From IMG/VR virus record IMGVR_UViG_2859788636_000004: a stretch of 21,627 bases of DNA. One strand, given 5' to 3'. Shown here piece by piece: positions 449 to 21,191 of the stretch. The position numbers and the translations under genes are program-made. Source of the stretch: a virus (Duplodnaviria; Heunggongvirae; Uroviricota; Caudoviricetes). The number at the start of each line of letters is the position of its first letter. The first letter of the stretch is position 1. The notes below the pieces were generated by a model. The model was not told the origin of the DNA. It worked only from the letters and a program-made list of their open reading frames with translations, and did no database searches.

Positions 449-743
449 AAAGTGAATTTTGTGATGCGGTGAATGCGGCTGAGCGCACGCGGAACAGTTA
501 AAAAGCGATTAGTTCCCACGTATCGGGTGGTTATGGGTTTCCCTGTATCCGGCGTTAATTGTTAACTGGTTAACGTCACCTGGAGGCACCAGGCACCGCA
601 TCAACAAAGTTCACTTCGGTGATGAAAGGTAAGAGAAAATGTTGAATGTAGCTATTGAAAACCAGAACGGGTGGAATTATAGTGCATCTGCACCTCATAA
701 AACGGGGGCCGGGCGTGGAAACCCGAACGTTACTCGAGCGCAT

Positions 744-767
744 AGCCGCGCTGAAGCGGTTTTTTTA
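744..767 (+). terminator. Rho-independent terminator (plus strand)
   Basis: AGCCGC / GCGGT stem (about 6 bp including a G-U pair) with 6-nt loop, followed by seven T (760-766). Confidence 0.5.
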
Positions 768-935
768 TGCGTAATGCACAGCTCCATTCAAATTATGGTG
801 GGATGTGCAGGGCAGTCGCAAGACTGGCCGGGTTCTCGAGTGACCGGTATTTCCACCCCTGTACGTCTCACCACCCTTATGGTCGTGGAAAACCTCGGTG
901 GTGAGTTAATTAACTTATCACTCGAGGATGCCATC

Positions 936-1477
936 ATGGCTACTATCCCTGCCCTTTCTCACCCTGACGTAACCATCGAAAACGGTCGCGCTGTCACTAC
1001 GTCTGTTGCGGTTGCAGAGTTCTTCCACAAACGACACGACAATGTGTTACGTGCCATCGCAAATACTGAATGCTCACCTGAATTTAACGCCCTCAATTTT
1101 GAGGACGTCACCTACACCGACACCAAAGGCGAAAAACGTCCAATGTACCAAATCACCAAAAACGGCTTCGTTTTCCTGGTGATGGGCTTCACTGGGAAAA
1201 AAGCCGCTGCATTCAAAGAGGCCTACATCGCTGATGTTCGACCGCATGGAGGCAGAACTGCACCAGAATAATACCCCGTCCGCTGACAAGATGATTCCGG
1301 GTAACGGTCGCACTCTGGTTGTGCACTTCGACGAACACGGCAATATCAGATTCACCGAAACTGTTCCTGACGGTGCACTGGTCTGTACCCTGGATACTTT
1401 CCAGTTTTATCTGGAAAAACAGGGGTGGGCTCTTGTAAACCGGAGCGCAATTAAAAATATGACCGTAGAGCAGCTGC
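936..1477 (+). pseudogene. Rha-family phage regulatory (antirepressor-like) gene, inactivated by frameshift and IS2 insertion
   Basis: N-terminus MATIPALSHPDVTIENGRAVTTSVAVAEFFHKRHDNVLRAIAN carries the Rha-domain signature (K-R-H-D-N-V-L-R). Reading frame shifts near 1234-1271 (two overlapping ORFs 639..1271 and 1234..1527). IS2 interrupts at 1478; after removing IS2 plus one TSD copy the frame continues ...EQLLSIK to a stop at 2825-2827. Confidence 0.65.
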
Positions 1478-3714: not shown

Positions 3715-5139
3715 ATGAACACCGATAAACAAGTTTACCCACTGTATTACGAAGCAAAAAATGACAAAGTAAGAAAACGTCTCGGTATTAAAGGCGGTTT
3801 TTACTGGGCTGAAGCGAAAAAATTATCCATTGCCATCTCCCGTGGTGCTGTTGCGATTGACGATGCAGGCTACGATGAAGATGACTTTAAAAAACCTGTT
3901 CGCGTCAATTTGCCCGTTGTTGATGACCTCCCGCCAGAAGGCGTATTTGATACGGAATTCTGCAACCGTTACGAAAAAGGCGGGGAAGATGGCATCACAA
4001 TGGTATTTATCGCATCTTCTCCCTCTGTTCAGGACAAACCGGCCAGCACTGACAATACCAACGTCAACGGCGAAGACATGACAGAAATTGAGGAGAACAT
4101 GCTCCTGCCAGTTTCCGGTCAGGAACTGCCCATTCGCTGGCTTGCGCAACACGGCAGCGAAAAACCAGTAACGCACGTTTCACGCGACGAACTCCAGGCA
4201 TTACACATTGCTCGGGATGAAGAACTACCAGCTGTTACTGCCCTGGCTGTTTCCCACAAAACCAGCCTGCTCGATCCGCTGGAAATTCGCGATCTCCACA
4301 AACTGGTGCGTGATACTGACAGAGTTTTCCCTAATCCAGGCAATTCAAGCCTGGGGCTGATGACTGCTTTTTTCGAAGCATACATGGACGCAGACTACAC
4401 CGATCGCGGTCTGCTGACAAAAGAGTGGATGAAAGGAAATCGTGTTTCACGCATCACGCGCACGGCTTCCGGCGCTAATGCTGGCGGCGGGAACCTCACC
4501 GATCGCGGCGAAGGTTTCGTTCACGATCTGACGTCACTGGCGCGCGACGTAGCCACTGGCGTACTGGCTCGTTCAATGGACGTGGACATTTATAACCTTC
4601 ATCCGGCACACGCTAAACGTGTCGAGGAAATTATCGCTGAAAATAAACCGCCCTTTTCTGTTTTCCGCGACAAATTCATCACCATGCCTGGCGGGATGGA
4701 TTATTCCCGCGCCATCGTGGTTGCGTCAGTGAAAGAAGCACCGATTGGTATCGAGGTCATCCCCGCTCACGTCACTGAATATCTGAACAAGGTACTGACT
4801 GAAACCGATCATGCCAACCCTGATCCGGAAATCGTGGATATTGCCTGCGGTCGCTCCTCTGCCCCGATGCCGCAACGTGTAACAGAAGAAGGAAAACAGG
4901 ATGATGAAGAAAAAACGCAGCCATCTGGCGCAATGGCAGATGAACAGGCAACGGCTGAAACAATGGAACCGGATGCAACTGAACATCATCAGAACACGCA
5001 GCCGCTGGATGCTCAGTCACAGGTAAATTCTGTTGATGAGAAATATCAGGAACTACGGGCAGAACTCCATGAAGCCCGGAAAAACATTCCGCCCAAAAAT
5101 CCTGTCGATGCAGACAAATTACTGGCTGCCTTGAGGTAG
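3715..5139 (+). CDS. Hypothetical prophage protein, 474 aa, acidic C-terminal region; 3' end and stop codon lie in an IS600 end fragment
   Basis: Long uninterrupted ORF with ATG at 3715; internal repeated TDRG motif (YTDRGLL and NLTDRGEG) and a Gly-rich stretch; the last codons TTG-AGG-TAG overlap the IS600 left-end fragment starting at 5132. No family recognised from memory. Confidence 0.65.
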
Positions 5140-5143: not shown

Positions 5144-5186
5144 TGAGGTGTACTGGCAATAGCGGACACTACCATTTGTTCTTTTT

Positions 5187-6005
5187 TTAAGCAGCCATCT
5201 GATGATATTTTTCCCTGAAGGCTGCCGGGGAGATATTCCCCAGACGAGAGTGACGACGCTGACGATTGTAGAAAATCTCAATGTATTCCCGTATTACTGA
5301 GGTGGCTTCATCCCGGTTATTAAAACGATAGTGGCTCAGGCTCTCATTTTTCAGCGTTCCCCAGAAGCTTTCCATCGGAGCGTTGTCGTAACAGTTACCT
5401 TTACGCGACATTGATGTTTTCAGACCAGACTGCTCCTGTATGACCCGGTAATCGTATGCGCAGTACTGTGAACCTCGATCAGAGTGGTGGATTAGCCCGG
5501 CAGGTGGGCGCTGGCTCCTGAGCGCCATAAACAGGGCTTTACCTGTCAGCTCTTTTGTCATGCGCTCTCCCATGGCGTAGCCGACAATTTCACACGTATA
5601 AACATCTTTGATGCCAGCGAGGTACAACCATCCCTCCTGTGTGGCAACATACGTCAGGTCCGCCACCCAGACCTGATTTGGTGCTGTAGGAGCGAACGTC
5701 TGGTTCAGCAGATTTGGCGCAACTGGCAGATTGTGGTTCGGGTTCGTAGTCGCTCTGAACTTGCGTTTCTGCTTACAGCGTAGCCTCAGCTCCTTACGAA
5801 GACGTGCCAGTCGGTCACGACCAACGATGATGCCATTCTCTGCCAGCTCCGTCTGGAGCCGCCGGGTTCCATATGTTTCGCGAGTGCGGATATGTGCCAC
5901 CTTAATCTCCAGTTTTAGCCGCTCATCACTTTGTTTTCTGTCTGAGGGTTCATGCTGTACCCAGTTGTAATAACCGCTCCTGGATACACCAAATACCTGA
6001 CACAT
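5187..6005 (-). CDS. IS600 OrfB transposase (DDE)
   Basis: 272-aa ORF, IS3-family integrase-core sequence (...IHHSDRGSQYCAYDY...SRKGNCYDNAPMESFWGTLK...). Confidence 0.9.
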   Translation of the reverse strand: MCQVFGVSRSGYYNWVQHEPSDRKQSDERLKLEIKVAHIRTRETYGTRRLQTELAENGIIVGRDRLARLRKELRLRCKQKRKFRATTNPNHNLPVAPNLLNQTFAPTAPNQVWVADLTYVATQEGWLYLAGIKDVYTCEIVGYAMGERMTKELTGKALFMALRSQRPPAGLIHHSDRGSQYCAYDYRVIQEQSGLKTSMSRKGNCYDNAPMESFWGTLKNESLSHYRFNNRDEATSVIREYIEIFYNRQRRHSRLGNISPAAFREKYHQMAA

Positions 6006-6040
6006 CGCTTCAATGGGAAATTGTTGTCGCCATTGTTCGA

Positions 6041-6343
6041 TTAACGCGTATTTTTCAGCGACTCCTGTGCAAAATACGCTGTTGCTTTTTTTAATATATC
6101 TCGCTCAAGGCGAGCTTCATTTAACGCCTTACGCAGTTGCAGAATTTCAGATTCCAGTTCAGCCACCGTGCGGGAACCAGGAGTACCGAGCCCTTTTCTG
6201 GCGGCGGTAACCCATTGTCCTAAAGTGCCTTCAGGAAGAGATAATCGGGAAGCGCCTTCACTGATCGAAAGTTGATTTTCAAGAACCGTTCTGACAGCTT
6301 CGGCTTTGAACTCTTTAGAGTAACGTTGGGTTTTTCTGCTCAT
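6041..6343 (-). CDS. IS600 OrfA (HTH transposase subunit)
   Basis: 100-aa [37 protein letters not shown]... with leucine-zipper-like C-terminus; A7G slippery run near its 3' end. Confidence 0.9.
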
Positions 6344-6407
6344 TATTAGCTCCTTCTGATGCCATTCTATTTCAGGAAGGAGTGTCCGTTAAACTCAGGC
6401 TACCTCA

Positions 6408-6658
6408 GAGCGCTTATCCGATTTTTGATCGTATTGAAGAAATGGCATGGGCTCGTCACTACCAGCAGATCGTTCGTGAAGAAAAAGAAACGGAACTGGC
6501 GGACGACCTGGAAAAAGGTCTGCCTCAGCACCTGTTTGAATCGCTCTGCATCGACCATTTGCAACGCCACGGTGCCAATAAACAGGCAATCAGCCACGCA
6601 TTTGATGATGATGTTGAGTTTCAGGAGCGCATGGCAGAACACATCCGGTACATGGCTG
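6408..6658 (+). pseudogene. Orphan internal gene fragment (about 83 codons) trapped between IS600 copy A and IS911
   Basis: Open frame ...[83 protein letters not shown] runs from the IS600 boundary into IS911 with no start or stop of its own; family not recognised. Confidence 0.3.
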
Positions 6659-6730
6659 TGAAGTGGCACACTGAATTTGGCCACCTGAACAGAGGTGATA
6701 TGCTCACCTCAGAACAACACAGGTGCTCCA

Positions 6731-7899
<1,169 letters not shown>

Positions 7900-8094
7900 C
7901 CACTTCAAGTAGTAGACGCCGTTACGCTGGTAGAGATAGTAGACTGCTGGAAGTTTGTGACTACTGGATAGCTGAATCATATGTCTGTATGCCCTGAGAG
8001 GGTTACACAGTGGGTTACAGTAAGTAACTCTGCAAGGAGGCTTAAAGCCGTATCCCTTAGGATTCAGTAGGTTGGAGTACTTTAAGAAAGGTCA

Positions 8095-8169
<75 letters not shown>

Positions 8170-8328: not shown

Positions 8329-8405
8329 TGGTGGCCCTTGCTGGACTTGAACCAGCGACCTGGCGATTATGAGTCGCTCGCTCTGACCAACTGAGCTAAA
8401 GGGCC
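8329..8405 (-). tRNA. tRNA with anticodon CAU, tRNA-Ile2 (lysidine)-like; Met cannot be excluded
   Basis: Reverse complement GGCCCTTTAGCTCAGTTGGTCAGAGCGAGCGACTCATAATCGCCAGGTCGCTGGTTCAAGTCCAGCAAGGGCCACCA; anticodon stem-loop GCGACTCATAATCGC and T-arm resemble E. coli ileX/ileY. Confidence 0.75.
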
Positions 8406-8414
8406 GGAGGCAGA

Positions 8415-8443
8415 ATAATAACCATATGTCATCACATCTGCAA
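8415..8443 (-). promoter_or_regulatory. Candidate sigma70 promoter for the tRNA array
   Basis: On the minus strand, TTGCAG (-35, plus coords 8438-8443), 17-nt spacer, TATTAT (-10, plus coords 8415-8420), about 9 nt upstream of the first tRNA 5' end at 8405. Confidence 0.4.
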
Positions 8444-8493
8444 ACTCATCTGACCACCAGCGCGTTTAACGCCCTGTGCCATTTTTCAGGCAC

Positions 8494-8517
8494 AAAAAAA
8501 CCCGCATAAAGCGGGTT
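8494..8517 (-). terminator. Rho-independent terminator downstream of the ORF6N-domain gene
   Basis: On the minus strand, AACCCGC-TTTAT-GCGGGTT hairpin followed by a T-run of seven. Confidence 0.6.
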
Positions 8518-9166
8518 CTTTCAAGTGTCCATGTCTGCTATTCGCCTCGCGATACAGCTTTGCGAAGCTTACCGGAATTGAAGCAGTTTATGTGCAAAAA
8601 TGCAAGAACTTTTTTAAAGCTGCATCAACCTTTCCACCAGTTTATCTCTGCGAACAACAAACCAACCATTGGCTCTCGCCAGTTCCAGCCATGACTCAAG
8701 GGAAATAACAATATCATCATCCCGTAACTGAATTGTGGAAACAGTGACACCGCCTCTCTGATAACAGAGAACTCGCGTGTCGTAACTTTTCTGGCATGAA
8801 ACTGGCGTTGACGGATCCCTTTGACTGAAATAGCAGTCTTCCAGTTTTTCGAACACATCCCACGCCTGATCGGTTTCGAGCATTTTGCCGTGGCGTGCTG
8901 CGCCTCGTTCTGTCCAGAGGATGAGGGAGCGGGCTTTGGGTGAAACTGGATTTTGTGAGTAGTTTAAAGCGACCCGCAATTCTTTAAGGTCATTACCAAC
9001 AACTTTGAAAAAGTGTTTCCCTTCAACGAAGCGTACTTTGTTCTCATGATGATTCTGGCGAATACGCACCGGCTCAGTGCCGTAAAGCTGCGCCAAAAGT
9101 TCGGTGGTAATAACAGGAATCTGTGAGGTGTACTGGCAATAGCGGACACTACCATTTGTTCTTTTT

Positions 9167-9985
9167 TTAAGCAGCCATCTGATGATATTTTTCCCTGAAG
9201 GCTGCCGGGGAGATATTCCCCAGACGAGAGTGACGACGCTGACGATTGTAGAAAATCTCAATGTATTCCCGTATTACTGAGATGGCTTCATCCCGGTTAT
9301 TAAAACGATAGTGGCTCAGGCTCTCATTTTTCAGCGTTCCCCAGAAGCTTTCCATCGGAGCGTTGTCGTAACAGTTACCTTTACGCGACATTGATGTTTT
9401 CAGACCAGACTGCTCCTGTATGACCCGGTAATCGTATGCGCAGTACTGTGAACCTCGATCAGAGTGGTGGATTAGCCCGGCAGGTGGGCGCTGGCTCCTG
9501 AGCGCCATAAACAGGGCTTTACCTGTCAGCTCTTTTGTCATGCGCTCTCCCATGGCGTAGCCGACAATTTCACACGTATAAACATCTTTGATGCCAGCGA
9601 GGTACAACCATCCCTCCTGTGTGGCAACATACGTCAGGTCCGCCACCCAGACCTGATTTGGTGCTGTAGGAGCGAACGTCTGGTTCAGCAGATTTGGCGC
9701 AACTGGCAGATTGTGGTTCGGGTTCGTAGTCGCTCTGAACTTGCGTTTCTGCTTACAGCGTAGCCTTAGCTCCTTACGAAGACGTGCCAGTCGGTCACGA
9801 CCAACGATGATGCCATTCTCTGCCAGCTCCGTCTGGAGCCGCCGGGTTCCATATGTTTCGCGAGTGCGGATATGTGCCACCTTAATCTCCAGTTTTAGCC
9901 GCTCATCACTTTGTTTTCTGTCTGAGGGTTCATGCTGTACCCAGTTGTAATAACCGCTCCTGGATACACCAAATACCTGACACAT
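9167..9985 (-). CDS. IS600 OrfB transposase
   Basis: 272 aa; one amino-acid difference from the copy A protein. Confidence 0.9.
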   Translation of the reverse strand: MCQVFGVSRSGYYNWVQHEPSDRKQSDERLKLEIKVAHIRTRETYGTRRLQTELAENGIIVGRDRLARLRKELRLRCKQKRKFRATTNPNHNLPVAPNLLNQTFAPTAPNQVWVADLTYVATQEGWLYLAGIKDVYTCEIVGYAMGERMTKELTGKALFMALRSQRPPAGLIHHSDRGSQYCAYDYRVIQEQSGLKTSMSRKGNCYDNAPMESFWGTLKNESLSHYRFNNRDEAISVIREYIEIFYNRQRRHSRLGNISPAAFREKYHQMAA

Positions 9986-10020
9986 CGCTTCAATGGGAAA
10001 TTGTTGTCGCCATTGTTCGA

Positions 10021-10323
10021 TTAACGCGTATTTTTCAGCGACTCCTGTGCAAAATACGCTGTTGCTTTTTTTAATATATCTCGCTCAAGGCGAGCTTCAT
10101 TTAACGCCTTACGCAGTTGCAGAATTTCAGATTCCAGTTCAGCCACCGTGCGGGAACCAGGAGTACCGAGCCCTTTTCTGGCGGCGGTAACCCATTGTCC
10201 TAAAGTGCCTTCAGGAAGAGATAATCGGGAAGCGCCTTCACTGATCGAAAGTTGATTTTCAAGAACCGTTCTGACAGCTTCGGCTTTGAACTCTTTAGAG
10301 TAACGTTGGGTTTTTCTGCTCAT
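10021..10323 (-). CDS. IS600 OrfA
   Basis: 100 aa, identical to the copy A OrfA. Confidence 0.9.
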   Translation of the reverse strand: MSRKTQRYSKEFKAEAVRTVLENQLSISEGASRLSLPEGTLGQWVTAARKGLGTPGSRTVAELESEILQLRKALNEARLERDILKKATAYFAQESLKNTR

Positions 10324-10600
10324 TATTAGCTCCTTCTGATGCCATTCTATTTCAGGAAGGAGTGTCCGTTAAACTCAGGCTACCTCACTGGTTATGGGTG
10401 ATCGGGGAGAGAGTTTCAACAGAGATTTGAGTGGTCATAACGATAACTCCGTACATTTGGAAATTATCGCCACCGACGACGCCAATCGAACTGGTGGCGA
10501 ACTGTGCAGGGTTGGCGTAACCGGGTACGGAAACCGGCGAGCCTTTCGGCTCCCCCACACAGCCCGCCATAAATCGCGAATGTGACTGTGCAAACGATAT

Positions 10601-10623
10601 GAAAAAAGACGCGGGCGCGTCTC
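10601..10623 (-). terminator. tR'-like intrinsic terminator just downstream of the late promoter
   Basis: On the minus strand, AGACGC-GCCC-GCGTCT hairpin followed by TTTTTT; lies about 55-75 nt downstream of the predicted start site. Confidence 0.55.
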
Positions 10624-10684
10624 ATATCGCTCCGTAAACATCCGGGACGCCAATCCCGACGCCAGATTTTGCTGGCGCGTGAGG

Positions 10685-10714
10685 AATATAGCCCCGGATA
10701 ACAGATTGAGTCAA
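10685..10714 (-). promoter_or_regulatory. PR'-like late promoter (candidate Q-utilisation region)
   Basis: On the minus strand, TTGACT (-35, overlapping the Q stop codon), 18-nt spacer, TATATT (-10). The promoter plus a short terminated leader right after a Q-like gene is the classical lambdoid arrangement. Confidence 0.5.
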
Positions 10715-11265
10715 CAAACGGTTTTTAGATCCCCGGAAGAGAATGCATCACGCATCGGTAGATAGAGCATATATTCAGCAAGATTTAGCCATACATCTAC
10801 CCGACTGCAGCACGTCCGGAAACACCACTCAGGGTGTGCGTCATTCAGCAATTCAGCCATTTTACGCTTAGTCATCCCCCGCCCTTCATACCGTTGCCGG
10901 AGGACACTAATCAATCCAGGATGCTCTGCCAGCACCTCACTTATGACTCTATCAATACATAACGCCTCTGCATCAGTACAATGCGCCAGCCAGGTCTTTT
11001 GCTTGCCATTGATCATCTCTCGCAAAAACGCTTCCAGCTCAGGTTTCTCTATTCCCGCTTTTTTCATCCTGCGCAGGGCTTCATTGACGGCTGTTTTCGT
11101 CAATTTTTTGGATGCCAGCAACTGGTTAAACATATTTCCCGTCTTACCGCCGCCAATATACGACCAGCGCCCCCACATGCGCAGTTTTCCCTGAATCCAG
11201 ACACTTTCCAGCGTGGTGAGACGAAGGTGTTCCCCGCTTTTGCCTGTATTTGTTGGGTAAATCAT
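10711..11265 (-). CDS. Putative late antiterminator Q-like protein (184 aa)
   Basis: Start ATG at 11263-11265 with SD GGAAGG and an ATGA overlap with the upstream gene; last gene before the PR'/tR' pair; follows YbcN-like and YbcO-like nin genes as in lambdoid prophages. Family assigned by position and a W-G-x-W motif recollection, not by confirmed homology. Confidence 0.55.
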   Translation of the reverse strand: MIYPTNTGKSGEHLRLTTLESVWIQGKLRMWGRWSYIGGGKTGNMFNQLLASKKLTKTAVNEALRRMKKAGIEKPELEAFLREMINGKQKTWLAHCTDAEALCIDRVISEVLAEHPGLISVLRQRYEGRGMTKRKMAELLNDAHPEWCFRTCCSRVDVWLNLAEYMLYLPMRDAFSSGDLKTVC

Positions 11266-11552
11266 AAATAACCTTCCTTTCTCCAGATTTCTTGTGTGCG
11301 AAAAACACCTTCTGCATGCATCAGGCGTAATTCTTCTTTGGTGTAATCGCTGGTTTTTACCCGCCCGTCGATTAAATCGTGGCATGAGCTACAGGCAATC
11401 GCTGCCTGCATATCGTGTGGTTTTGTCGCTGTTCCGCACGTCCCCGCCAGCCTGTAATGCGCCAGCACAGAAGTTTCGGGATTGTGATTGCAGTAGCCAG
11501 GAATTCTGACGGTGCACATCTGCCCCCGCGCCGCTTTACGTAAATCCACCAT
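11262..11552 (-). CDS. YbcO-like protein (DUF1364, putative nuclease) of the nin region
   Basis: MVDLRKAARGQMCTVRIPGYCNHNPETSVLAHYRLAGTCGTATKPHDMQAAIACSSCHDLIDGR... resembles E. coli DLP12 YbcO, with conserved Cys/His pattern. Confidence 0.7.
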   Translation of the reverse strand: MVDLRKAARGQMCTVRIPGYCNHNPETSVLAHYRLAGTCGTATKPHDMQAAIACSSCHDLIDGRVKTSDYTKEELRLMHAEGVFRTQEIWRKEGYL

Positions 11553-12151
11553 TACGCAAACTCCAGTAACTGCGCGGCCACATTTTCGACTTCCTCCGGA
11601 GAGGAAAATTTACGGAACAGGATCCAGTTCCACAGCACATTCAGTACAGATTTATAAACCTGCTGAAACTCGGTTTCGTCCATGTTCGCAAATGCGATAG
11701 ATTTTGCCCTGCGCCCACGACTACCATCAGGATAAATATGCTCGGTGTAAAATCCGGCCTGAATGGTTACCCACTCGCGGAAAGCGTCAAACGACTTTAG
11801 CAATGCCGTATCCCGGGTTCTGCATGTCGCAACTGTATTAAGGTATTGCTCTGCGGCATCACTCAGGGCTGGAGTGTGTTCCCGACCTACTGATTCGCAC
11901 AGGTAATCAACGAAGCCTGATACCAGTTTTCGTTCGCGAGGCGTGATCGCCCCACCGACCGGAGTCCAGTAATCAAATCCCAGTTGCAGGAGTTTGAAAA
12001 AACGCTTGTGGAATGCGTAGTTACGCACACGCTTAAAGTCTGCGTGTATCCACTCACCTATTTTGATTTGATGCAAAAAATCGCAACTCTCCGGCGTCGC
12101 CGGGAGAAGTAATCCGGAAGAGGTTTGTTTGACCAGTTGTATATGCGCCAT
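11552..12151 (-). CDS. YbcN-like protein (DUF1367 family), 199 aa
   Basis: MAHIQLVKQTSSGLLLPATPESCDFLHQIKIGEWIHADFKRVRNYAFHKRFFKLLQLGFDYW...; start/stop overlap with the downstream gene. Confidence 0.65.
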   Translation of the reverse strand: MAHIQLVKQTSSGLLLPATPESCDFLHQIKIGEWIHADFKRVRNYAFHKRFFKLLQLGFDYWTPVGGAITPRERKLVSGFVDYLCESVGREHTPALSDAAEQYLNTVATCRTRDTALLKSFDAFREWVTIQAGFYTEHIYPDGSRGRRAKSIAFANMDETEFQQVYKSVLNVLWNWILFRKFSSPEEVENVAAQLLEFA

Positions 12152-12284
12152 CGTAGTTCTCCGCTGGCGCAGTAGAATGGGTGTTCAGCCCGTTATGTAG
12201 TATACCAGAATTAATGCCAATACTAACAGGGTAATGCTGCCAACTTACTGATTTAGTGTATGATGGTGATTTTAAGGTGCTTGC

Positions 12285-12560
12285 GTGGCTTCCATTTCCA
12301 TCAGATGTCCTTCCTGCTCCGCTACTGAAGGCGTGGTGCGTAACGGCAAAAGCACTGCCGGACATCAGCGCTATCTCTGCTCTCATTGCCGTAAAACATG
12401 GCAACTACAGTTCACTTACACCGCCTCTCAGCCCGGTACGCACCAGAAAATCATTGATATGGCCATGAATGGCGTCGGATGTCGCGCCAGTGCACGCATT
12501 ATGGGCGTTGGCCTCAACACGGTTTTACGTCACTTAAAAAACTCAGGCCGCAGTCGGTAA
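12285..12560 (+). CDS. insA: IS1 InsA
   Basis: [66 protein letters not shown]...; GTG start; A6C slippery motif TTAAAAAACTC near its 3' end. Confidence 0.9.
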
Positions 12561-12982
12561 CCTCGCGCATACAACCGGGCAGTGATGTGATTGTCTGCGC
12601 TGAAATGGACGAACATTGGGGCTACGTCGGTGCTAAATCACGTCAGCGCTGGCTGTTTTACGCGTATGACAGGATACGGAGGACGGTTGTGGCGCACGTC
12701 TTCGGTGAACGCACTCTGGCCACACTGGAGCGTCTTCTGAGCCTGCTGTCGGCCTTTGAGGTCGTGGTATGGATGACGGATGGCTGTCCGCTGTATGAAT
12801 CACGCCTGAAGGGAAAGCTGCACGTTATCAGCAAGCGTTACACTCAGCGCATTGAGCGACATAATCTGAATCTGAGACAACATCTGGCAAGGCTGGTACG
12901 GAAGTCACTGTCGTTCTCAAAATCGGTGGAGCTGCATGACAAGGTCATCGGGCATTATCTGAACATAAAACACTATCAGTAA
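12479..12982 (+). CDS. insB: IS1 InsB reading frame (expressed as InsAB' by -1 frameshift)
   Basis: 167-aa frame overlapping insA; C-terminus matches the partial copy at 1-294. Confidence 0.9.
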
Positions 12983-12999
12983 GTTGGAGTCATTACCTA

Positions 13000-13251
13000 C
13001 TAACAGGATGCTCTGACTCGCAATTCATCCAGCAGTTTATCATTTCCCATAATGTCACTTACCCTCATCGGTAAAAAAATTGCCTTTCGACCATTACGAT
13101 ACATTATTGATTTTGGGGTTTCAGGGAAGTAATCCATTTCGACTATAACTGACAGGTCATCACGACGTATGACTGCGTATTTGCTACTAAATAGTTTCTT
13201 TATTTTTTCCACGATGCCCCCAGGTTTATAAGTACAAACGGTTATATCCAC
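13000..13251 (-). CDS. Hypothetical protein (83 aa), AT-rich accessory gene
   Basis: ORF MDITVCTYKPGGIVEKIKKLFSSKYAVIRRDDLSVIVEMDYFPETPKSIMYRNGRK...; its stop codon TAG lies inside the right copy of the IS1 target-site duplication; AT-rich upstream region 13252-13380. Confidence 0.45.
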   Translation of the reverse strand: MDITVCTYKPGGIVEKIKKLFSSKYAVIRRDDLSVIVEMDYFPETPKSIMYRNGRKAIFLPMRVSDIMGNDKLLDELRVRASC

Positions 13252-17397: not shown

Positions 17398-18235
17398 GGT
17401 CTGTTACCCCCTGAAGCCTAGCGGGATCGCACTGTCCGGCAACGAGACGGTGTTAACCTGTCGGAGCAACGTCTCAGGCCGAACACCTTTCGGCGCGAAC
17501 AGACCCTGGTATTCATTGGCGATGCTGTGTCGAATCACCTGCTCAGGTGTAAAACCCTGCTGACGGAATTTTTCCAGTTCCCGTATCGCCCCGTTAGCGC
17601 CCAGCTCCGTTCGAATCGGTTTTCGCAATGCCTGCCTGAACTGGACCCACTCATGCCAGAGTGTTTCTGGCAACCAGTCGGGCAGATCAACTGACAACGG
17701 GTCAAATTTTTTCTGGCGAACAGCCCCACCGATAACCAGAATTCCCTGCTCGGTGTGCCTTGCGATATCACTGCGCCGCAAGACACATATCCCGGTTTCA
17801 ACAGCACCGATTTTGAGCAGTGATTTCTGTCGCGGAGAATTTCGGTCAAGCTCGATCCCACACCGGACACCGTTCCTGTCAGTCACGACGATATCAATCC
17901 GCCCTCCGCAACCGTCACCACGCTCTGGCACCGGATACTCACGACAGACATCCAGGCCAGCAGCCTGCAACGCAACCACCGCAGAATTACAAAATTCCGC
18001 TGCAGTACCGCCAGATAATCTCCCCTCAAGCACTCCAGCCACAAAATCCCGAAACTCCCTTCCGGAAGGGAAGGGTTTGGGATGGGTTAGATCTGTTTTT
18101 AGATCTTTATCTGTATCTTTATTAGTTGCCTTTGTGTTGGCATCTAGACTGGCCCCCTGAATCTCCAGACAACCAGTATCACTTATTTAAGTGATAGTCT
18201 TAATACTAGTTTTTAGACTAGTCATTGGAGAACAG

Positions 18236-18601
18236 ATGATTGATGTCTTAGGGCCGGAGAAACGCAGACGGCGTACCACACAGGAAAAGATCGCAATTGT
18301 TCAGCAGAGCTTTGAACCGGGGATGACGGTCTCCCTCGTTGCCCGGCAACATGGTGTAGCAGCCAGCCAGTTATTTCTCTGGCGTAAGCAATACCAGGAA
18401 GGAAGTCTTACTGCTGTGGCCGCCGGAGAACAGGTTGTTCCTGCCTCTGAACTTGCTGCCGCCATGAAGCAGATTAAAGAACTCCAGCGCCTGCTCGGCA
18501 AGAAAACGATGAAAAATGAACTCCTCAAAGAAGCCGTTGAATATGGACGGGCAAAAAAGTGGATAGCGCACGCGCCCTTATTGCCCGGGGATGGGGAGTA
18601 A
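18236..18601 (+). CDS. insC: IS2 OrfA (InsC)
   Basis: Protein identical to the copy at 1569-1934. Confidence 0.9.
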
Positions 18602-19464
18602 GCTTAGTCAGCCGTTGTCTCCGGGTGTCGCGTGCGCAGTTGCACGTCATTCTCAGACGAACCGATGACTGGATGGATGGCCGCCGCAGTCGTCACACTG
18701 ATGATACGGATGTGCTTCTCCGTATACACCATGTTATCGGAGAGCTGCCCACGTATGGTTATCGTCGGGTATGGGCGCTGCTTCGCAGACAGGCAGAACT
18801 TGATGGTATGCCTGCGATCAATGCCAAACGTGTTTACCGGCTCATGCGCCAGAATGCGCTGTTGCTTGAGCGAAAACCTGCTGTACCGCCATCGAAACGG
18901 GCACATACAGGCAGAGTGGCCGTGAAAGAAAGCAATCAGCGATGGTGCTCTGACGGGTTCGAGTTCTGCTGTGATAACGGAGAGAGACTGCGTGTCACGT
19001 TCGCGCTGGACTGCTGTGATCGTGAGGCACTGCACTGGGCGGTGACTACCGGCGGCTTCAACAGTGAAACAGTACAGGACGTCATGCTGGGAGCAGTGGA
19101 ACGCCGCTTCGGCAACGATCTTCCGTCGTCTCCAGTGGAGTGGCTGACGGATAATGGTTCATGCTACCGGGCTAATGAAACACGCCAGTTCGCCCGGATG
19201 TTGGGACTTGAACCGAAGAACACGGCGGTGCGGAGTCCGGAGAGTAACGGAATAGCAGAGAGCTTCGTGAAAACGATAAAGCGTGACTACATCAGTATCA
19301 TGCCCAAACCAGACGGGTTAACGGCAGCAAAGAACCTTGCAGAGGCGTTCGAGCATTATAACGAATGGCATCCGCATAGTGCGCTGGGTTATCGCTCGCC
19401 ACGGGAATATCTGCGGCAGCGGGCTTGTAATGGGTTAAGTGATAACAGATGTCTGGAAATATAG
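18559..19464 (+). CDS. insD: IS2 OrfB (InsD)
   Basis: Protein identical to the copy at 1892-2797. Confidence 0.9.
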
Positions 19465-19991
19465 GGGCAAATCCAGCATCATGTTCGAACACCACTCCAA
19501 CATCTGTTTGAACACCTGTTAAATTTCTCTCTTGTTTTGTTTGAACATCTGCTTCCTTTCTGCTTCTTCTGGCCTGAACAGATGCTTTTCCTGCGGCTGA
19601 TTTTTTGGTTAATTTTTCTCTGACAGATGCCAGATCTTCCTCAATCCGAAGATGCATCCATTCGTCGCCGTTATCACAAAAAAACTCCCGCAAGGATGGT
19701 TCAACATCAACCCATCGCTCGTTAGTCAGACGGGCAATTTTTGCCAACCTGTTTTTGGGTATTGGCTTTCCTGTTTGCCAGTAATTGAACATCAGCAACA
19801 AATACGCGCCGTGCTCCTCTGCTGACAAATGCATGGTGTCAGCCAGGTAATCAGCTATGTACAGTTGCATGTATGGTAATGCGGCCATAATTGCCCCGTA
19901 TGATGCTACCCGGTTGCTTAGAATAAGTGAGGTAGCCTGAGTTTAACGGACACTCCTTCCTGAAATAGAATGGCATCAGAAGGAGCTAATA

Positions 19992-20294
19992 ATGAGCAGA
20001 AAAACCCAACGTTACTCTAAAGAGTTCAAAGCCGAAGCTGTCAGAACGGTTCTTGAAAATCAACTTTCGATCAGTGAAGGCGCTTCCCGATTATCCCTTC
20101 CTGAAGGCACTTTAGGACAATGGGTTACCGCCGCCAGAAAAGGGCTCGGTACTCCTGGTTCCCGCACGGTGGCTGAACTGGAATCTGAAATTCTGCAACT
20201 GCGTAAGGCGTTAAATGAAGCTCGCCTTGAGCGAGATATATTAAAAAAAGCAACAGTGTATTTTGCACAGGAGTCGCTGAAAAATACGCGTTAA
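19992..20294 (+). CDS. IS600 OrfA
   Basis: 100 aa; one substitution (A to V) relative to copies A and B. Confidence 0.9.
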   Translation: MSRKTQRYSKEFKAEAVRTVLENQLSISEGASRLSLPEGTLGQWVTAARKGLGTPGSRTVAELESEILQLRKALNEARLERDILKKATVYFAQESLKNTR

Positions 20295-20329
20295 TCGAAC
20301 AATGGCGACAACAATTTCCCATTGAAGCG

Positions 20330-21148
20330 ATGTGTCAGGTATTTGGTGTATCCAGGAGCGGTTATTACAACTGGGTACAGCATGAACCCTCAGACAGAAA
20401 ACAAAGTGATGAGCGGCTAACACTGGAGATTAAGGTGGCACATATCCGCACTCGCGAAACATATGGAACCCGGCGGCTCCAGACGGAGCTGGCAGAGAAT
20501 GGCATCATCGTTGGTCGTGACCGACTGGCACGTCTTCGTAAGGAGCTGAGGCTACGCTGTAAGCAGAAACGCAAGTTCAGAGCGACTACGAACCCGAACC
20601 ACAATCTGCCAGTTGCGCCAAATCTGCTGAACCAGACGTTCGCTCCTACAGCACCAAATCAGGTCTGGGTGGCGGACCTGACGTATGTTGCCACACAGGA
20701 GGGATGGTTGTACCTCGCTGGCATCAAAGATGTTTATACGTGTGAAATTGTCGGCTACGCCATGGGAGAGCGCATGACAAAAGAGCTGACAGGTAAAGCC
20801 CTGTTTATGGCGCTCAGGAGCCAGCGCCCACCTGCCGGGCTAATCCACCACTCTGATCGAGGTTCACAGTACTGCGCATACGATTACCGGGTCATACAGG
20901 AGCAGTCTGGTCTGAAAACATCAATGTCGCGTAAAGGTAACTGTTACGACAACGCTCCGATGGAAAGCTTCTGGGGAACGCTGAAAAATGAGAGCCTGAG
21001 CCACTATCGTTTTAATAACCGGGATGAAGCCATCTCAGTAATACGGGAATACATTGAGATTTTCTACAATCGTCAGCGTCGTCACTCTCGTCTGGGGAAT
21101 ATCTCCCCGGCAGCCTTCAGGGAAAAATATCATCAGATGGCTGCTTAA
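20330..21148 (+). CDS. IS600 OrfB transposase
   Basis: 272 aa; a few substitutions relative to copies A and B. Confidence 0.9.
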   Translation: MCQVFGVSRSGYYNWVQHEPSDRKQSDERLTLEIKVAHIRTRETYGTRRLQTELAENGIIVGRDRLARLRKELRLRCKQKRKFRATTNPNHNLPVAPNLLNQTFAPTAPNQVWVADLTYVATQEGWLYLAGIKDVYTCEIVGYAMGERMTKELTGKALFMALRSQRPPAGLIHHSDRGSQYCAYDYRVIQEQSGLKTSMSRKGNCYDNAPMESFWGTLKNESLSHYRFNNRDEAISVIREYIEIFYNRQRRHSRLGNISPAAFREKYHQMAA

Positions 21149-21191
21149 AAAAAGAACAAATGGTAGTGTCCGCTATTGCCAGTACACCTCA

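Follow-up and report, generated by a model that had tools for sequence, protein, structure and literature searches.

A DUF1133-type Q gene in a decayed lambdoid prophage is followed by an IsrK/C4 antirepressor cassette and, most likely beyond it, by its own late promoter

Introduction

The closest described relative of the locus studied here is the antQ-isrK-orf45-anrP-isrJ region of the Gifsy-1 prophage of Salmonella Typhimurium, in which a Q gene is followed by the promoter PisrK and by the small RNA (sRNA) IsrK. There, deletion of the promoter and fusions to lacZ have established that PisrK is active (Hershko-Shalev et al. 2016, PMC4825925), and the same study demonstrated experimentally a 77-nt IsrK, partial read-through into orf45-anrP and a processed RNA downstream of IsrK. 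Free IsrK activates translation of the antirepressor, and the mutations G28A and G31A abolish its function (PMC4825925). Here we describe a comparable arrangement around a Q-like gene (11265-10711) in a 21,627-nt stretch of Caudoviricetes DNA, IMG/VR record IMGVR_UViG_2859788636_000004, hereafter the window. Coordinates are those of the window throughout, and Q, the cassette that follows it, the copy B of the insertion sequence (IS) IS600 and the candidate late unit all lie on the minus strand. We consider it probable that the locus is a composite, in which a DUF1133-type Q gene, an inserted IsrK/C4 antirepressor cassette and Q's own late unit at 8605-8494 follow one another.

Each Q family needs its own binding element between the -35 and -10 hexamers (PMC6606751), and a constant promoter-leader-terminator segment after Q, followed by variable gene content, defines a Q cassette (bioRxiv 10.1101/651190). 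Of the systems known in structural detail, Q21 with pR'21 (6P18, 6JNX; PMC6606751, bioRxiv 10.1101/651190) has a protein that is homologous to the one encoded in the window and that shares its predicted fold. The Q/PR'/StxS region of phage 933W (PMC7547250) shows the same succession of promoter, short leader and terminator, and then tRNA and late genes. An earlier note on this DNA, made from the sequence alone, drew its analogy instead with lambda PR'-6S RNA-tR', which likewise has a constitutive promoter and a short terminated RNA next to Q. However, lambda Q (PF03589) is unrelated to the window protein, and the lambda leader is 194 nt long and has no antisense partner.

Antisense RNAs of the C4 type are known from the immI region of phages P1 and P7 (c4-icd-ant) and, in a similar form, from P4 (CI RNA, seqA-seqC); they are processed from the same transcript as their targets. 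In P1, elements a' and b' of the antisense RNA pair with a1/b1 upstream and with a second copy downstream that covers a ribosome-binding site, the regulated product is an antirepressor, and specificities differ by co-variation of the paired elements. The window shares these traits, with both the C4 and the c4-a1b1 families of Rfam found above threshold. In contrast to P1, a Rho-independent terminator in the window splits a1/b1 from C4 and would set the targets free in the form of an sRNA (IsrK), the regulated gene codes for an antirepressor of the ORF6N type, and the module sits in a lambdoid late-control region instead of a P1 plasmid prophage.

Results

The Q-like protein is a distant homologue of Q21

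The Q-like gene (ATG 11265-11263, TGA 10713-10711) is intact and encodes 184 amino acids that match Pfam DUF1133 with 359.5 bits and, just over the cut-off of 26 bits, PF06530 with 27.6 bits. The latter is the Q21/Q933W family (bioRxiv 10.1101/651190). When a profile of 42 diverse DUF1133 proteins was compared with the PDB, it matched the Q21 chains 6p18/6jnx with an expectation value (E) of 6e-10 and 42 bits, over Q21 residues 8-43 and 56-154 and with the TCRR recognition-helix motif aligned. An hhalign comparison of the DUF1133 profile with Q933W gave an E of 2e-4 and a probability of 46%. Comparison of the lone sequence with Q21 was marginal (E 0.013), as was hhalign with a shallow alignment (7% probability), both of which improved with a deeper alignment.

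Structural modeling points the same way. A first AlphaFold2 (AF2) model based on 20 close homologues was too poor to use, with a predicted local distance difference test (pLDDT) score of 53. The second model, for which more distant DUF1133 proteins were added after two further searches, has a pLDDT of 71.6, residues 101-170 reaching about 80-96. In a Foldseek search of the PDB with this model, the six top matches were all Q21 chains (template modeling score 0.42-0.56, prob 1.00), with modest E values (7e-3), while the next PDB match had an E above 3. Support for the Q21 fold, a sigma-R4-like helical body with a helix-turn-helix, is moderate, the N-terminal half of the model being weak. The two proteins also differ, with about 17-20% identity over the Foldseek alignments and with the long minor-groove loop of Q21 much shorter in the window protein, whose predicted recognition helix reads RTCCSRVDVW.

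In intact phages, the DUF1133 gene occupies the canonical position of Q, closing the nin-type region ahead of the lysis genes. In four relatives (L001, L002, L003 and L165), the order is DUF1367, DUF1364/YbcO, Q, (cassette), (tRNAs), holin, lysozyme, the elements in brackets being variably present. By profile and model comparison, the 184-amino-acid open reading frame (ORF) encodes a true homologue of Q, from a distant branch (DUF1133) of the Q21/Q933W antiterminator superfamily. The suspicion of the earlier note that this ORF encodes a Q protein has thus stood the comparison with the Q families.

Two of these relatives deserve a remark of their own. In L001 (PP818812, "Actinobacillus phage vB_Apl-pPE4"), the Q region has about 92% DNA identity to this Escherichia/Shigella locus, and the recorded host, Actinobacillus pleuropneumoniae, looks doubtful. 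In L002 (phage Rac-SA53, 4001-6223), about 450 bp separate the DUF1133 Q from the pertussis-like toxin genes eplBA downstream of it, with LT-IIa genes further on. The DUF1133 Q subfamily may control toxin expression, as Q933W does for Shiga toxin 2 (Stx2).

The promoter and terminator next to Q probably belong to IsrK

Directly after Q, we found the promoter that the earlier note had described, TTGACT (10714-10709) and TATATT (10690-10685) separated by 18 nt, with a 10/12 match to the consensus and with the Q stop codon inside the -35 hexamer. It was the top sigma-70-like site within 9000-13000 in a promoter scan. The hexamers alone prove little because such pairs were no commoner than chance, with five found and 4.1 expected from shuffles. 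The significance of the promoter comes from the transcript it brackets, which matches Rfam isrK over its full length. The GC hairpin with a U-run is present as well, an intrinsic terminator (GAGACGCGCCCGCGTCTTTTTT, 10623-10602, stem 10623-10606) that forms the end of an IsrK-like sRNA gene of 77 nt (10678-10602). The match to RF01394 has 75.6 bits (gathering threshold 50), an E of 1.8e-16 and spans model positions 1-77 of 77. Promoter and terminator therefore very probably yield a short RNA of about 77 nt, in line with the Gifsy-1 experiments on nearly the same sequence (PMC4825925). Its start is predicted at 10678, no more than one base from the position near 10677 at which the earlier note expected a short transcript.

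Within this region, RF03163 (c4-a1b1) scores 52.2 bits (gathering threshold 46.7) at 10691-10639, and the RNA carries the C4 target elements b1 UUGGCG (10653-10648) and a1 UACGGAG (10636-10630). A -10-like CAAAAT at +8 to +13 of the predicted transcript coincides with the conserved loop of the a1b1 target model.

Sequence comparison indicates that the promoter at 10714-10685 is probably the PisrK of IsrK and not a Q-dependent late promoter, and that the terminator is that of IsrK and not a tR'. This is because in Gifsy-1 an unrelated Q is followed by almost the same promoter and leader, because related cassette copies, each with a promoter of its own, are found apart from Q genes and because close Q relatives do without the cassette. 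From the -35 hexamer through codon 17 of the antirepressor gene, the DNA of the window is almost the same as that of Gifsy-1, and nucleotides 2-38 of IsrK are identical, including G28 and G31, which fall within b1. However, AntQ belongs to PF06323 (Q82 type) and has no similarity to the DUF1133/Q21-like protein of the window. As for the position of the cassette, some loci have it 3 kb upstream of Q, and the window itself harbors a second copy with no Q gene. Finally, Q relatives that are 89% and 70% identical to the window protein have neither isrK nor C4 after Q, and in those with 89% identity Q is directly followed by a different unit, of the type described next.

A second unit accompanies DUF1133-Q in every locus compared

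The late promoter that belongs to this Q most likely lies at 8605-8494, in a unit located by alignment and folding. This candidate unit is found about 2 kb beyond Q, a cassette of about 0.85 kb being interposed in this lineage, a feature that sets it apart from phages 21 and 933W. Its promoter consists of a -35 TTGCAT (8605-8600), a 17-nt spacer (TTTTGCACATAAACTGC) and a -10 TTCAAT (8582-8577). A conserved leader (GCTTCGCAAAGCTGTATCGCGAGGCGAA) and a terminator follow, GAACCCGC-TTTAT-GCGGGTTT (8518-8498) with a T-run to 8494, which a consensus terminator scan missed. A search of 8400-8700 against Rfam at a permissive threshold returned sub-threshold noise only.

To place this unit, we compared 82 loci with a DUF1133-Q, 80 from IMG/VR and two phages, which amount to 48 unique sequences. 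The unit accompanies Q in 82/82, in only two architectures. In 51 loci, the unit follows Q directly and its -35 overlaps the Q stop codon; in about 31, Q is followed by the cassette, and the unit comes right after the stop codon of the antirepressor gene. Indeed, the DNA directly after Q in relatives with no cassette is homologous to window 8613-8485, which starts just past that stop codon. Across loci, the hexamers are TTGCAT, TTGCAA or TTGATT with TTCAAT, 17 nt apart, and the leader is invariant. The terminator shows compensatory variants, and similarity between loci is wholly lost after it. This agrees with the published definition of a Q cassette given above.

The spacer of this unit varies with the protein. 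Three types of Q recognition helix (STCEKR, ATCRNR and RTCCSR) pair one-to-one with three types of spacer (ACGC, AGCC and GCAC, at about -25 to -22) in all 80 scored loci (51/51, 17/17 and 12/12). The window holds a matched pair, RTCCSR with TTGCAT-TTTTGCAC. The variable patch lies about where the Q21 binding element does, although the TGAGCA direct repeat of pR'21 is absent. In contrast, the 30-mer of PisrK is identical in 31 DUF1133-Q loci and the same across both cassette-bearing helix types, with no co-variation with the helix. The spacers of PisrK and of the candidate late promoter have no convincing similarity to each other. Alleles of the cassette are shuffled between the two cassette-bearing helix types.

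Gifsy-1 offers a parallel. Its order is the same, with Q, PisrK, IsrK, C4/orf45, an ORF6N gene and then a second promoter-RNA-terminator unit, which is unrelated to that of the window: it contains Rfam isrJ, whereas the window unit matches no Rfam family. This unit of 107 nt lies at 33512-33406, minus strand, of the Gifsy-1 record (L004). Among 80 loci with AntQ relatives, about 35 have Q, the cassette and the 107-nt unit, and about 45 have Q directly followed by that unit. These architectures suggest that IsrJ, and not IsrK, is the late-promoter leader RNA of Gifsy-1. The pR' of phage 82 has been described with an extended -10-like element at about +9 to +14, GCC at +15 to +17 and a pause at +25. 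The early transcribed region of the IsrJ unit reads TGATATCGTCGCC, a placement compatible with that description that does not amount to proof. No phage records with an annotated pR' over the 107-nt unit of Gifsy-1 were found.

The cassette encodes a C4 RNA and an ORF6N antirepressor

The cassette has four parts: PisrK; IsrK with a1/b1 and its terminator; C4; and a2/b2 over a ribosome-binding site, followed by the ORF6N gene. The C4-type antisense RNA gene (10574-10490) scores 77.6 bits against Rfam RF01695 (gathering threshold 45, E 1.4e-15) and is the counterpart of STnc1160/orf45 in Gifsy-1. Its pairing elements are the loop a' UUUCCGUA (10533-10526) and b' CGCCAA (10517-10512). The former is complementary to UACGGAG, of which one copy is in IsrK and another spans the Shine-Dalgarno sequence in front of the antirepressor gene, and the latter to UUGGCG, found in IsrK and at 10485-10480. 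The downstream targets, read from the sequence at 10485-10447, are thus b2 UUGGCG (10485-10480) and a2 UACGGAG (10453-10447), which contains the GGAG Shine-Dalgarno sequence of the antirepressor gene, 9 nt before the ATG at 10438.

Since energies of whole-RNA duplexes were uninformative, we judged pairing from these short complementary elements. When three specificity variants were compared by eye, the a/b targets and their C4 partners were seen to change together. The cassette next to Q (copy B) has UACGGAG/UUUCCGUA and UUGGCG/CGCCAA, Gifsy-1 has UCACCG/CGGUGA, its a element thereby differing from that of the window, and the second module of the window (copy A) has ACUCGAG/CUCGAGUG and GUGGAAA/UUUCCAC. 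Because their elements differ in a compensating way, copies A and B should be heteroimmune, like P1 and P7.

Copy A, at 655-1271 on the plus strand, has its own promoter (TTGAAA, 17 nt, TATAGT at 655-683). Its IsrK-like RNA (690-766, 59.6 bits) and C4 (791-878, 76.7 bits) together span 690-878, and a Rha-domain ORF starts from an ATG at 936. There is no Q gene upstream, where an IS1 ends near 300.

ORFs that overlap the two C4 genes (10570-10385, minus strand; 639-1271, plus strand) match Pfam Phage_ASH (PF10554). The frame equivalent to orf45 is fused in-frame to the antirepressor in the window, ends in an ATGA overlap in Gifsy-1 and has early stops in other alleles. Since the end of the frame varies among alleles, the protein reading of the C4 stretch is not conserved, and Phage_ASH may be a family that largely models a translated RNA gene.

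The antirepressor gene is in two pieces. Its 5' fragment (10438-10388, codons 1-17, MTTQISVETLSPITHNQ) is continuous in intact relatives with a 3' fragment (9123-8614), which is AnrP-like, scores 65.2 bits against Pfam ORF6N and has 96-99% DNA identity to intact genes in several IMG/VR loci, such as L005 and L006.

An insertion sequence has destroyed the antirepressor gene, and the late genes are missing

The two pieces are separated by IS600 copy B (10387-9124), an IS3-family element that is 99.8% identical over 1264 bp to annotated IS600 and whose transposase genes point the same way as the cassette. It is bounded by a 3-bp target duplication, CAG at 10390-10388 and 9123-9121, and cuts the antirepressor gene after codon 17. 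The exact junction also occurs in one Shigella flexneri genome and in one genome labeled E. coli. In the earlier note, the first gene after the terminator was said to be split by this element. The next protein gene is indeed split, while the first element after the terminator is the gene for the C4 RNA, and the split gene, which the note had taken for a target of Q, encodes an antirepressor. Its further conclusion, that the late-control module is cut off from its target genes by the insertion, fails on position. What IS600 destroys, as it does not in Gifsy-1, is the antirepressor gene, and the link between Q and its late promoter is not broken, because the insertion lies upstream of the candidate late promoter and Q acts in trans. 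A repeat finder proposed that IS600 copy C has the same 22 extra flanking bases as copy B, which might have been a third fragment of the antirepressor gene; on reading the sequence, there was no real similarity.

Downstream of the late unit lie four tRNA genes (8405-8095), with anticodon CAT (Met or Ile2), Arg-TCT, Thr-TGT and Gly-TCC. In the intact relative L165, holin, lysozyme, Rz and terminase genes come next; the order in the prophage of the intact E. coli relative FDAARGOS_944 is Q, ORF6N gene, four tRNAs, holin, lysozyme, Rz and terminase. The window is collinear with the FDAARGOS_944 prophage, IS insertions apart, up to tRNA-Gly at 8095, where similarity ends. The next 187 bases have no match, and they are followed by an ISEc52-like element (7907-6658) and IS600 copy A. 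That the late genes are missing is due to this end of homology to intact relatives after the tRNAs, where these other IS elements lie. Neither 8094-7908 nor 6657-6408 found a match among roughly 170 related loci fetched. In the intact E. coli relative, the ISEc52-like element occupies another site within the same prophage.

On the other side of Q, an IS1 (12231-12997) has inserted immediately before the DUF1367 gene and stands between the early region of the prophage and the DUF1367-YbcO-Q genes, which is why Q may be poorly expressed. Its target duplication, seen as an overlap with the intact relative, is about 10 bp. A hok/sok-type pair (13812-13488, minus strand; Rfam sok, 118 bits; ORF of 70 amino acids, 13700-13488) lies upstream of the same genes, as in phages pPE4 and Rac-SA53. 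The IS load of the window is heavy, with further elements at 1-300, 1477-2810, 5144-6407, 6658-7907, 18144-19475 and 19928-21191 that comprise a second IS1, two IS2-like copies (ORFs of 136 and 301 amino acids), two more IS600 and the ISEc52-like IS3-family element. A 474-amino-acid ORF with an exonuclease VIII (RecE-like) domain (3715-5139, plus strand), across IS600 copy A, probably belongs to a fragment of another prophage. We read the region as the right-hand regulatory end of a lambdoid prophage of Shigella flexneri type that has decayed.

Discussion

All the parts of this locus are of known kinds, on the one hand a Q that resembles Q21 and has a late unit of its own, on the other an antirepressor cassette of the IsrK/C4 type, and the first reading of the region had partly misassigned them. 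By analogy with P1 immI and Gifsy-1, most transcripts from PisrK would end as the 77-nt IsrK. Read-through RNA would carry C4, the loops of which would pair with a2/b2 and keep the antirepressor untranslated, and free IsrK would supply the same target sequences in trans and lift the block. Q, for its part, would load at the 8605-8494 unit, with its promoter, leader of about 77 nt and terminator, beyond which lie tRNAs and, in intact relatives, the lysis and head genes. In the window, read-through from PisrK would now enter the IS600 transposase genes in the sense direction. The cassette should still be able to make IsrK and C4, without antirepressor. Q and the candidate late unit are intact, and the late genes beyond the tRNAs are gone.

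Several points weigh against this composite. The -10 of the late unit, TTCAAT, does not have the usual A at position 2, the consensus promoter scan did not report TTGCAT/TTCAAT, and we saw by eye no convincing sigma-dependent pause element in the leader and no binding repeat. Transcription starts and late-promoter activity are here predicted from sequence. The correlation between helix and spacer could reflect linkage within three clades and not selection, and many of the IMG/VR loci are near-duplicates (48 unique sequences among 82), which are not independent samples. Other points speak for a role of Q at PisrK. Three bases of its spacer are specific to the DUF1133 context, a published discussion puts IsrK under an antitermination-regulated promoter (PMC7547250), and in Gifsy-1 read-through of the IsrK terminator, giving the long isrK-anrP transcript, goes up about 8-fold when the cascade that induces AntQ is on (PMC4825925).

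The last three points bear on two alternatives. If, as the earlier note had it, 10714-10685 were PR' and 10623-10602 tR', Q would load there and IS600 would have severed the operon. This has in its favor the spacer bases and the published view of IsrK just mentioned, a promoter that adjoins Q with the stop codon inside its -35, a strong promoter with a short terminated RNA like lambda 6S RNA or StxS (PMC7547250), and the -10-like CAAAAT at +8 to +13, the conservation of which is, however, explained by the a1b1 target loop. We nevertheless regard it as improbable. The same promoter and leader follow the unrelated Q of Gifsy-1 and occur in cassette copies with no adjacent Q, while Q proteins require family-specific elements between -35 and -10 (PMC6606751); PisrK is invariant across two helix types, and it is the 8605-8494 unit that co-varies and that directly follows Q in the relatives with 89% identity. 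Moreover, what lies downstream of PisrK is an antisense RNA and an antirepressor, the lysis genes of intact relatives coming only after the second unit. Still less probable, in our view, is a dual action of Q, at 8605-8494 and in suppression of the IsrK terminator. For the latter, Q would load at PisrK, or else polymerase that is modified by Q, or meets it in excess, would ignore terminators generally. This would close a positive feedback loop from Q through the antirepressor and derepression to more Q. The 8-fold rise is what such a model would predict, AntQ interferes with termination globally in Gifsy-1 (PMC4825925), and in two Q families that are not related the cassette has the same place, between Q and the late unit, which may point to a function of that position. 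On the other hand, no element specific to a Q type is visible in PisrK, the cassette also works from other genomic positions, its location may merely reflect a permissive site for moron insertion, and in the window IS600 would have broken the loop anyway.

A third alternative, which we hold to be very unlikely, questions the protein itself: it would have a sigma-R4/Q21-like fold and bind DNA as a regulator, in a role other than antitermination, and the conserved unit would be an unrelated sRNA gene. Pfam does class DUF1133 as a domain of unknown function, we found no experimental work on the family, the PF06530 score barely passes its threshold, and the Foldseek E (7e-3) is modest for an AF2 model of moderate confidence. 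Against this, the profile match at E 6e-10 covers most of Q21 including the TCRR motif, and Q21 is the sole meaningful structural match. The gene stands after DUF1367 and DUF1364/YbcO and before the tRNA and lysis genes, as Q genes do, and is always followed by a promoter-leader-terminator unit and then by varied genes, in keeping with the definition of a Q cassette (bioRxiv 10.1101/651190).

The composite of Q, cassette and late unit thus remains our preferred reading, and we lean toward a wider one, that isrK-C4-antirepressor is a mobile cassette, which in two or more unrelated Q families has come to lie exactly between Q and the late promoter. The 6S-like leader RNAs would then be IsrJ in Gifsy-1 and, here, an undescribed RNA of about 77 nt (about 8570-8494), and not IsrK, at odds with a passing description of IsrK in the literature. 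A role of IsrJ as the late leader of Gifsy-1 would affect how the published IsrK-AnrP-AntQ circuit is read. Two lookalike units, each a promoter with a short terminated RNA by Q, can be told apart in this locus, and adjacency to Q is insufficient for calling a late promoter.

As for the prophage in the window, it keeps Q, the IsrK/C4 pair and probably an intact late promoter, IS elements having cost it the antirepressor and the late genes. The two RNAs that survive, IsrK and C4, could still act in trans where the same cell carries related prophages. For the family, the three spacer variants would mark the binding element of a never-studied Q subfamily, which provides a testable candidate for the large uncharacterized DUF1133 branch of Q, including that of phage Rac-SA53 with its LT-II and pertussis-like toxin genes.

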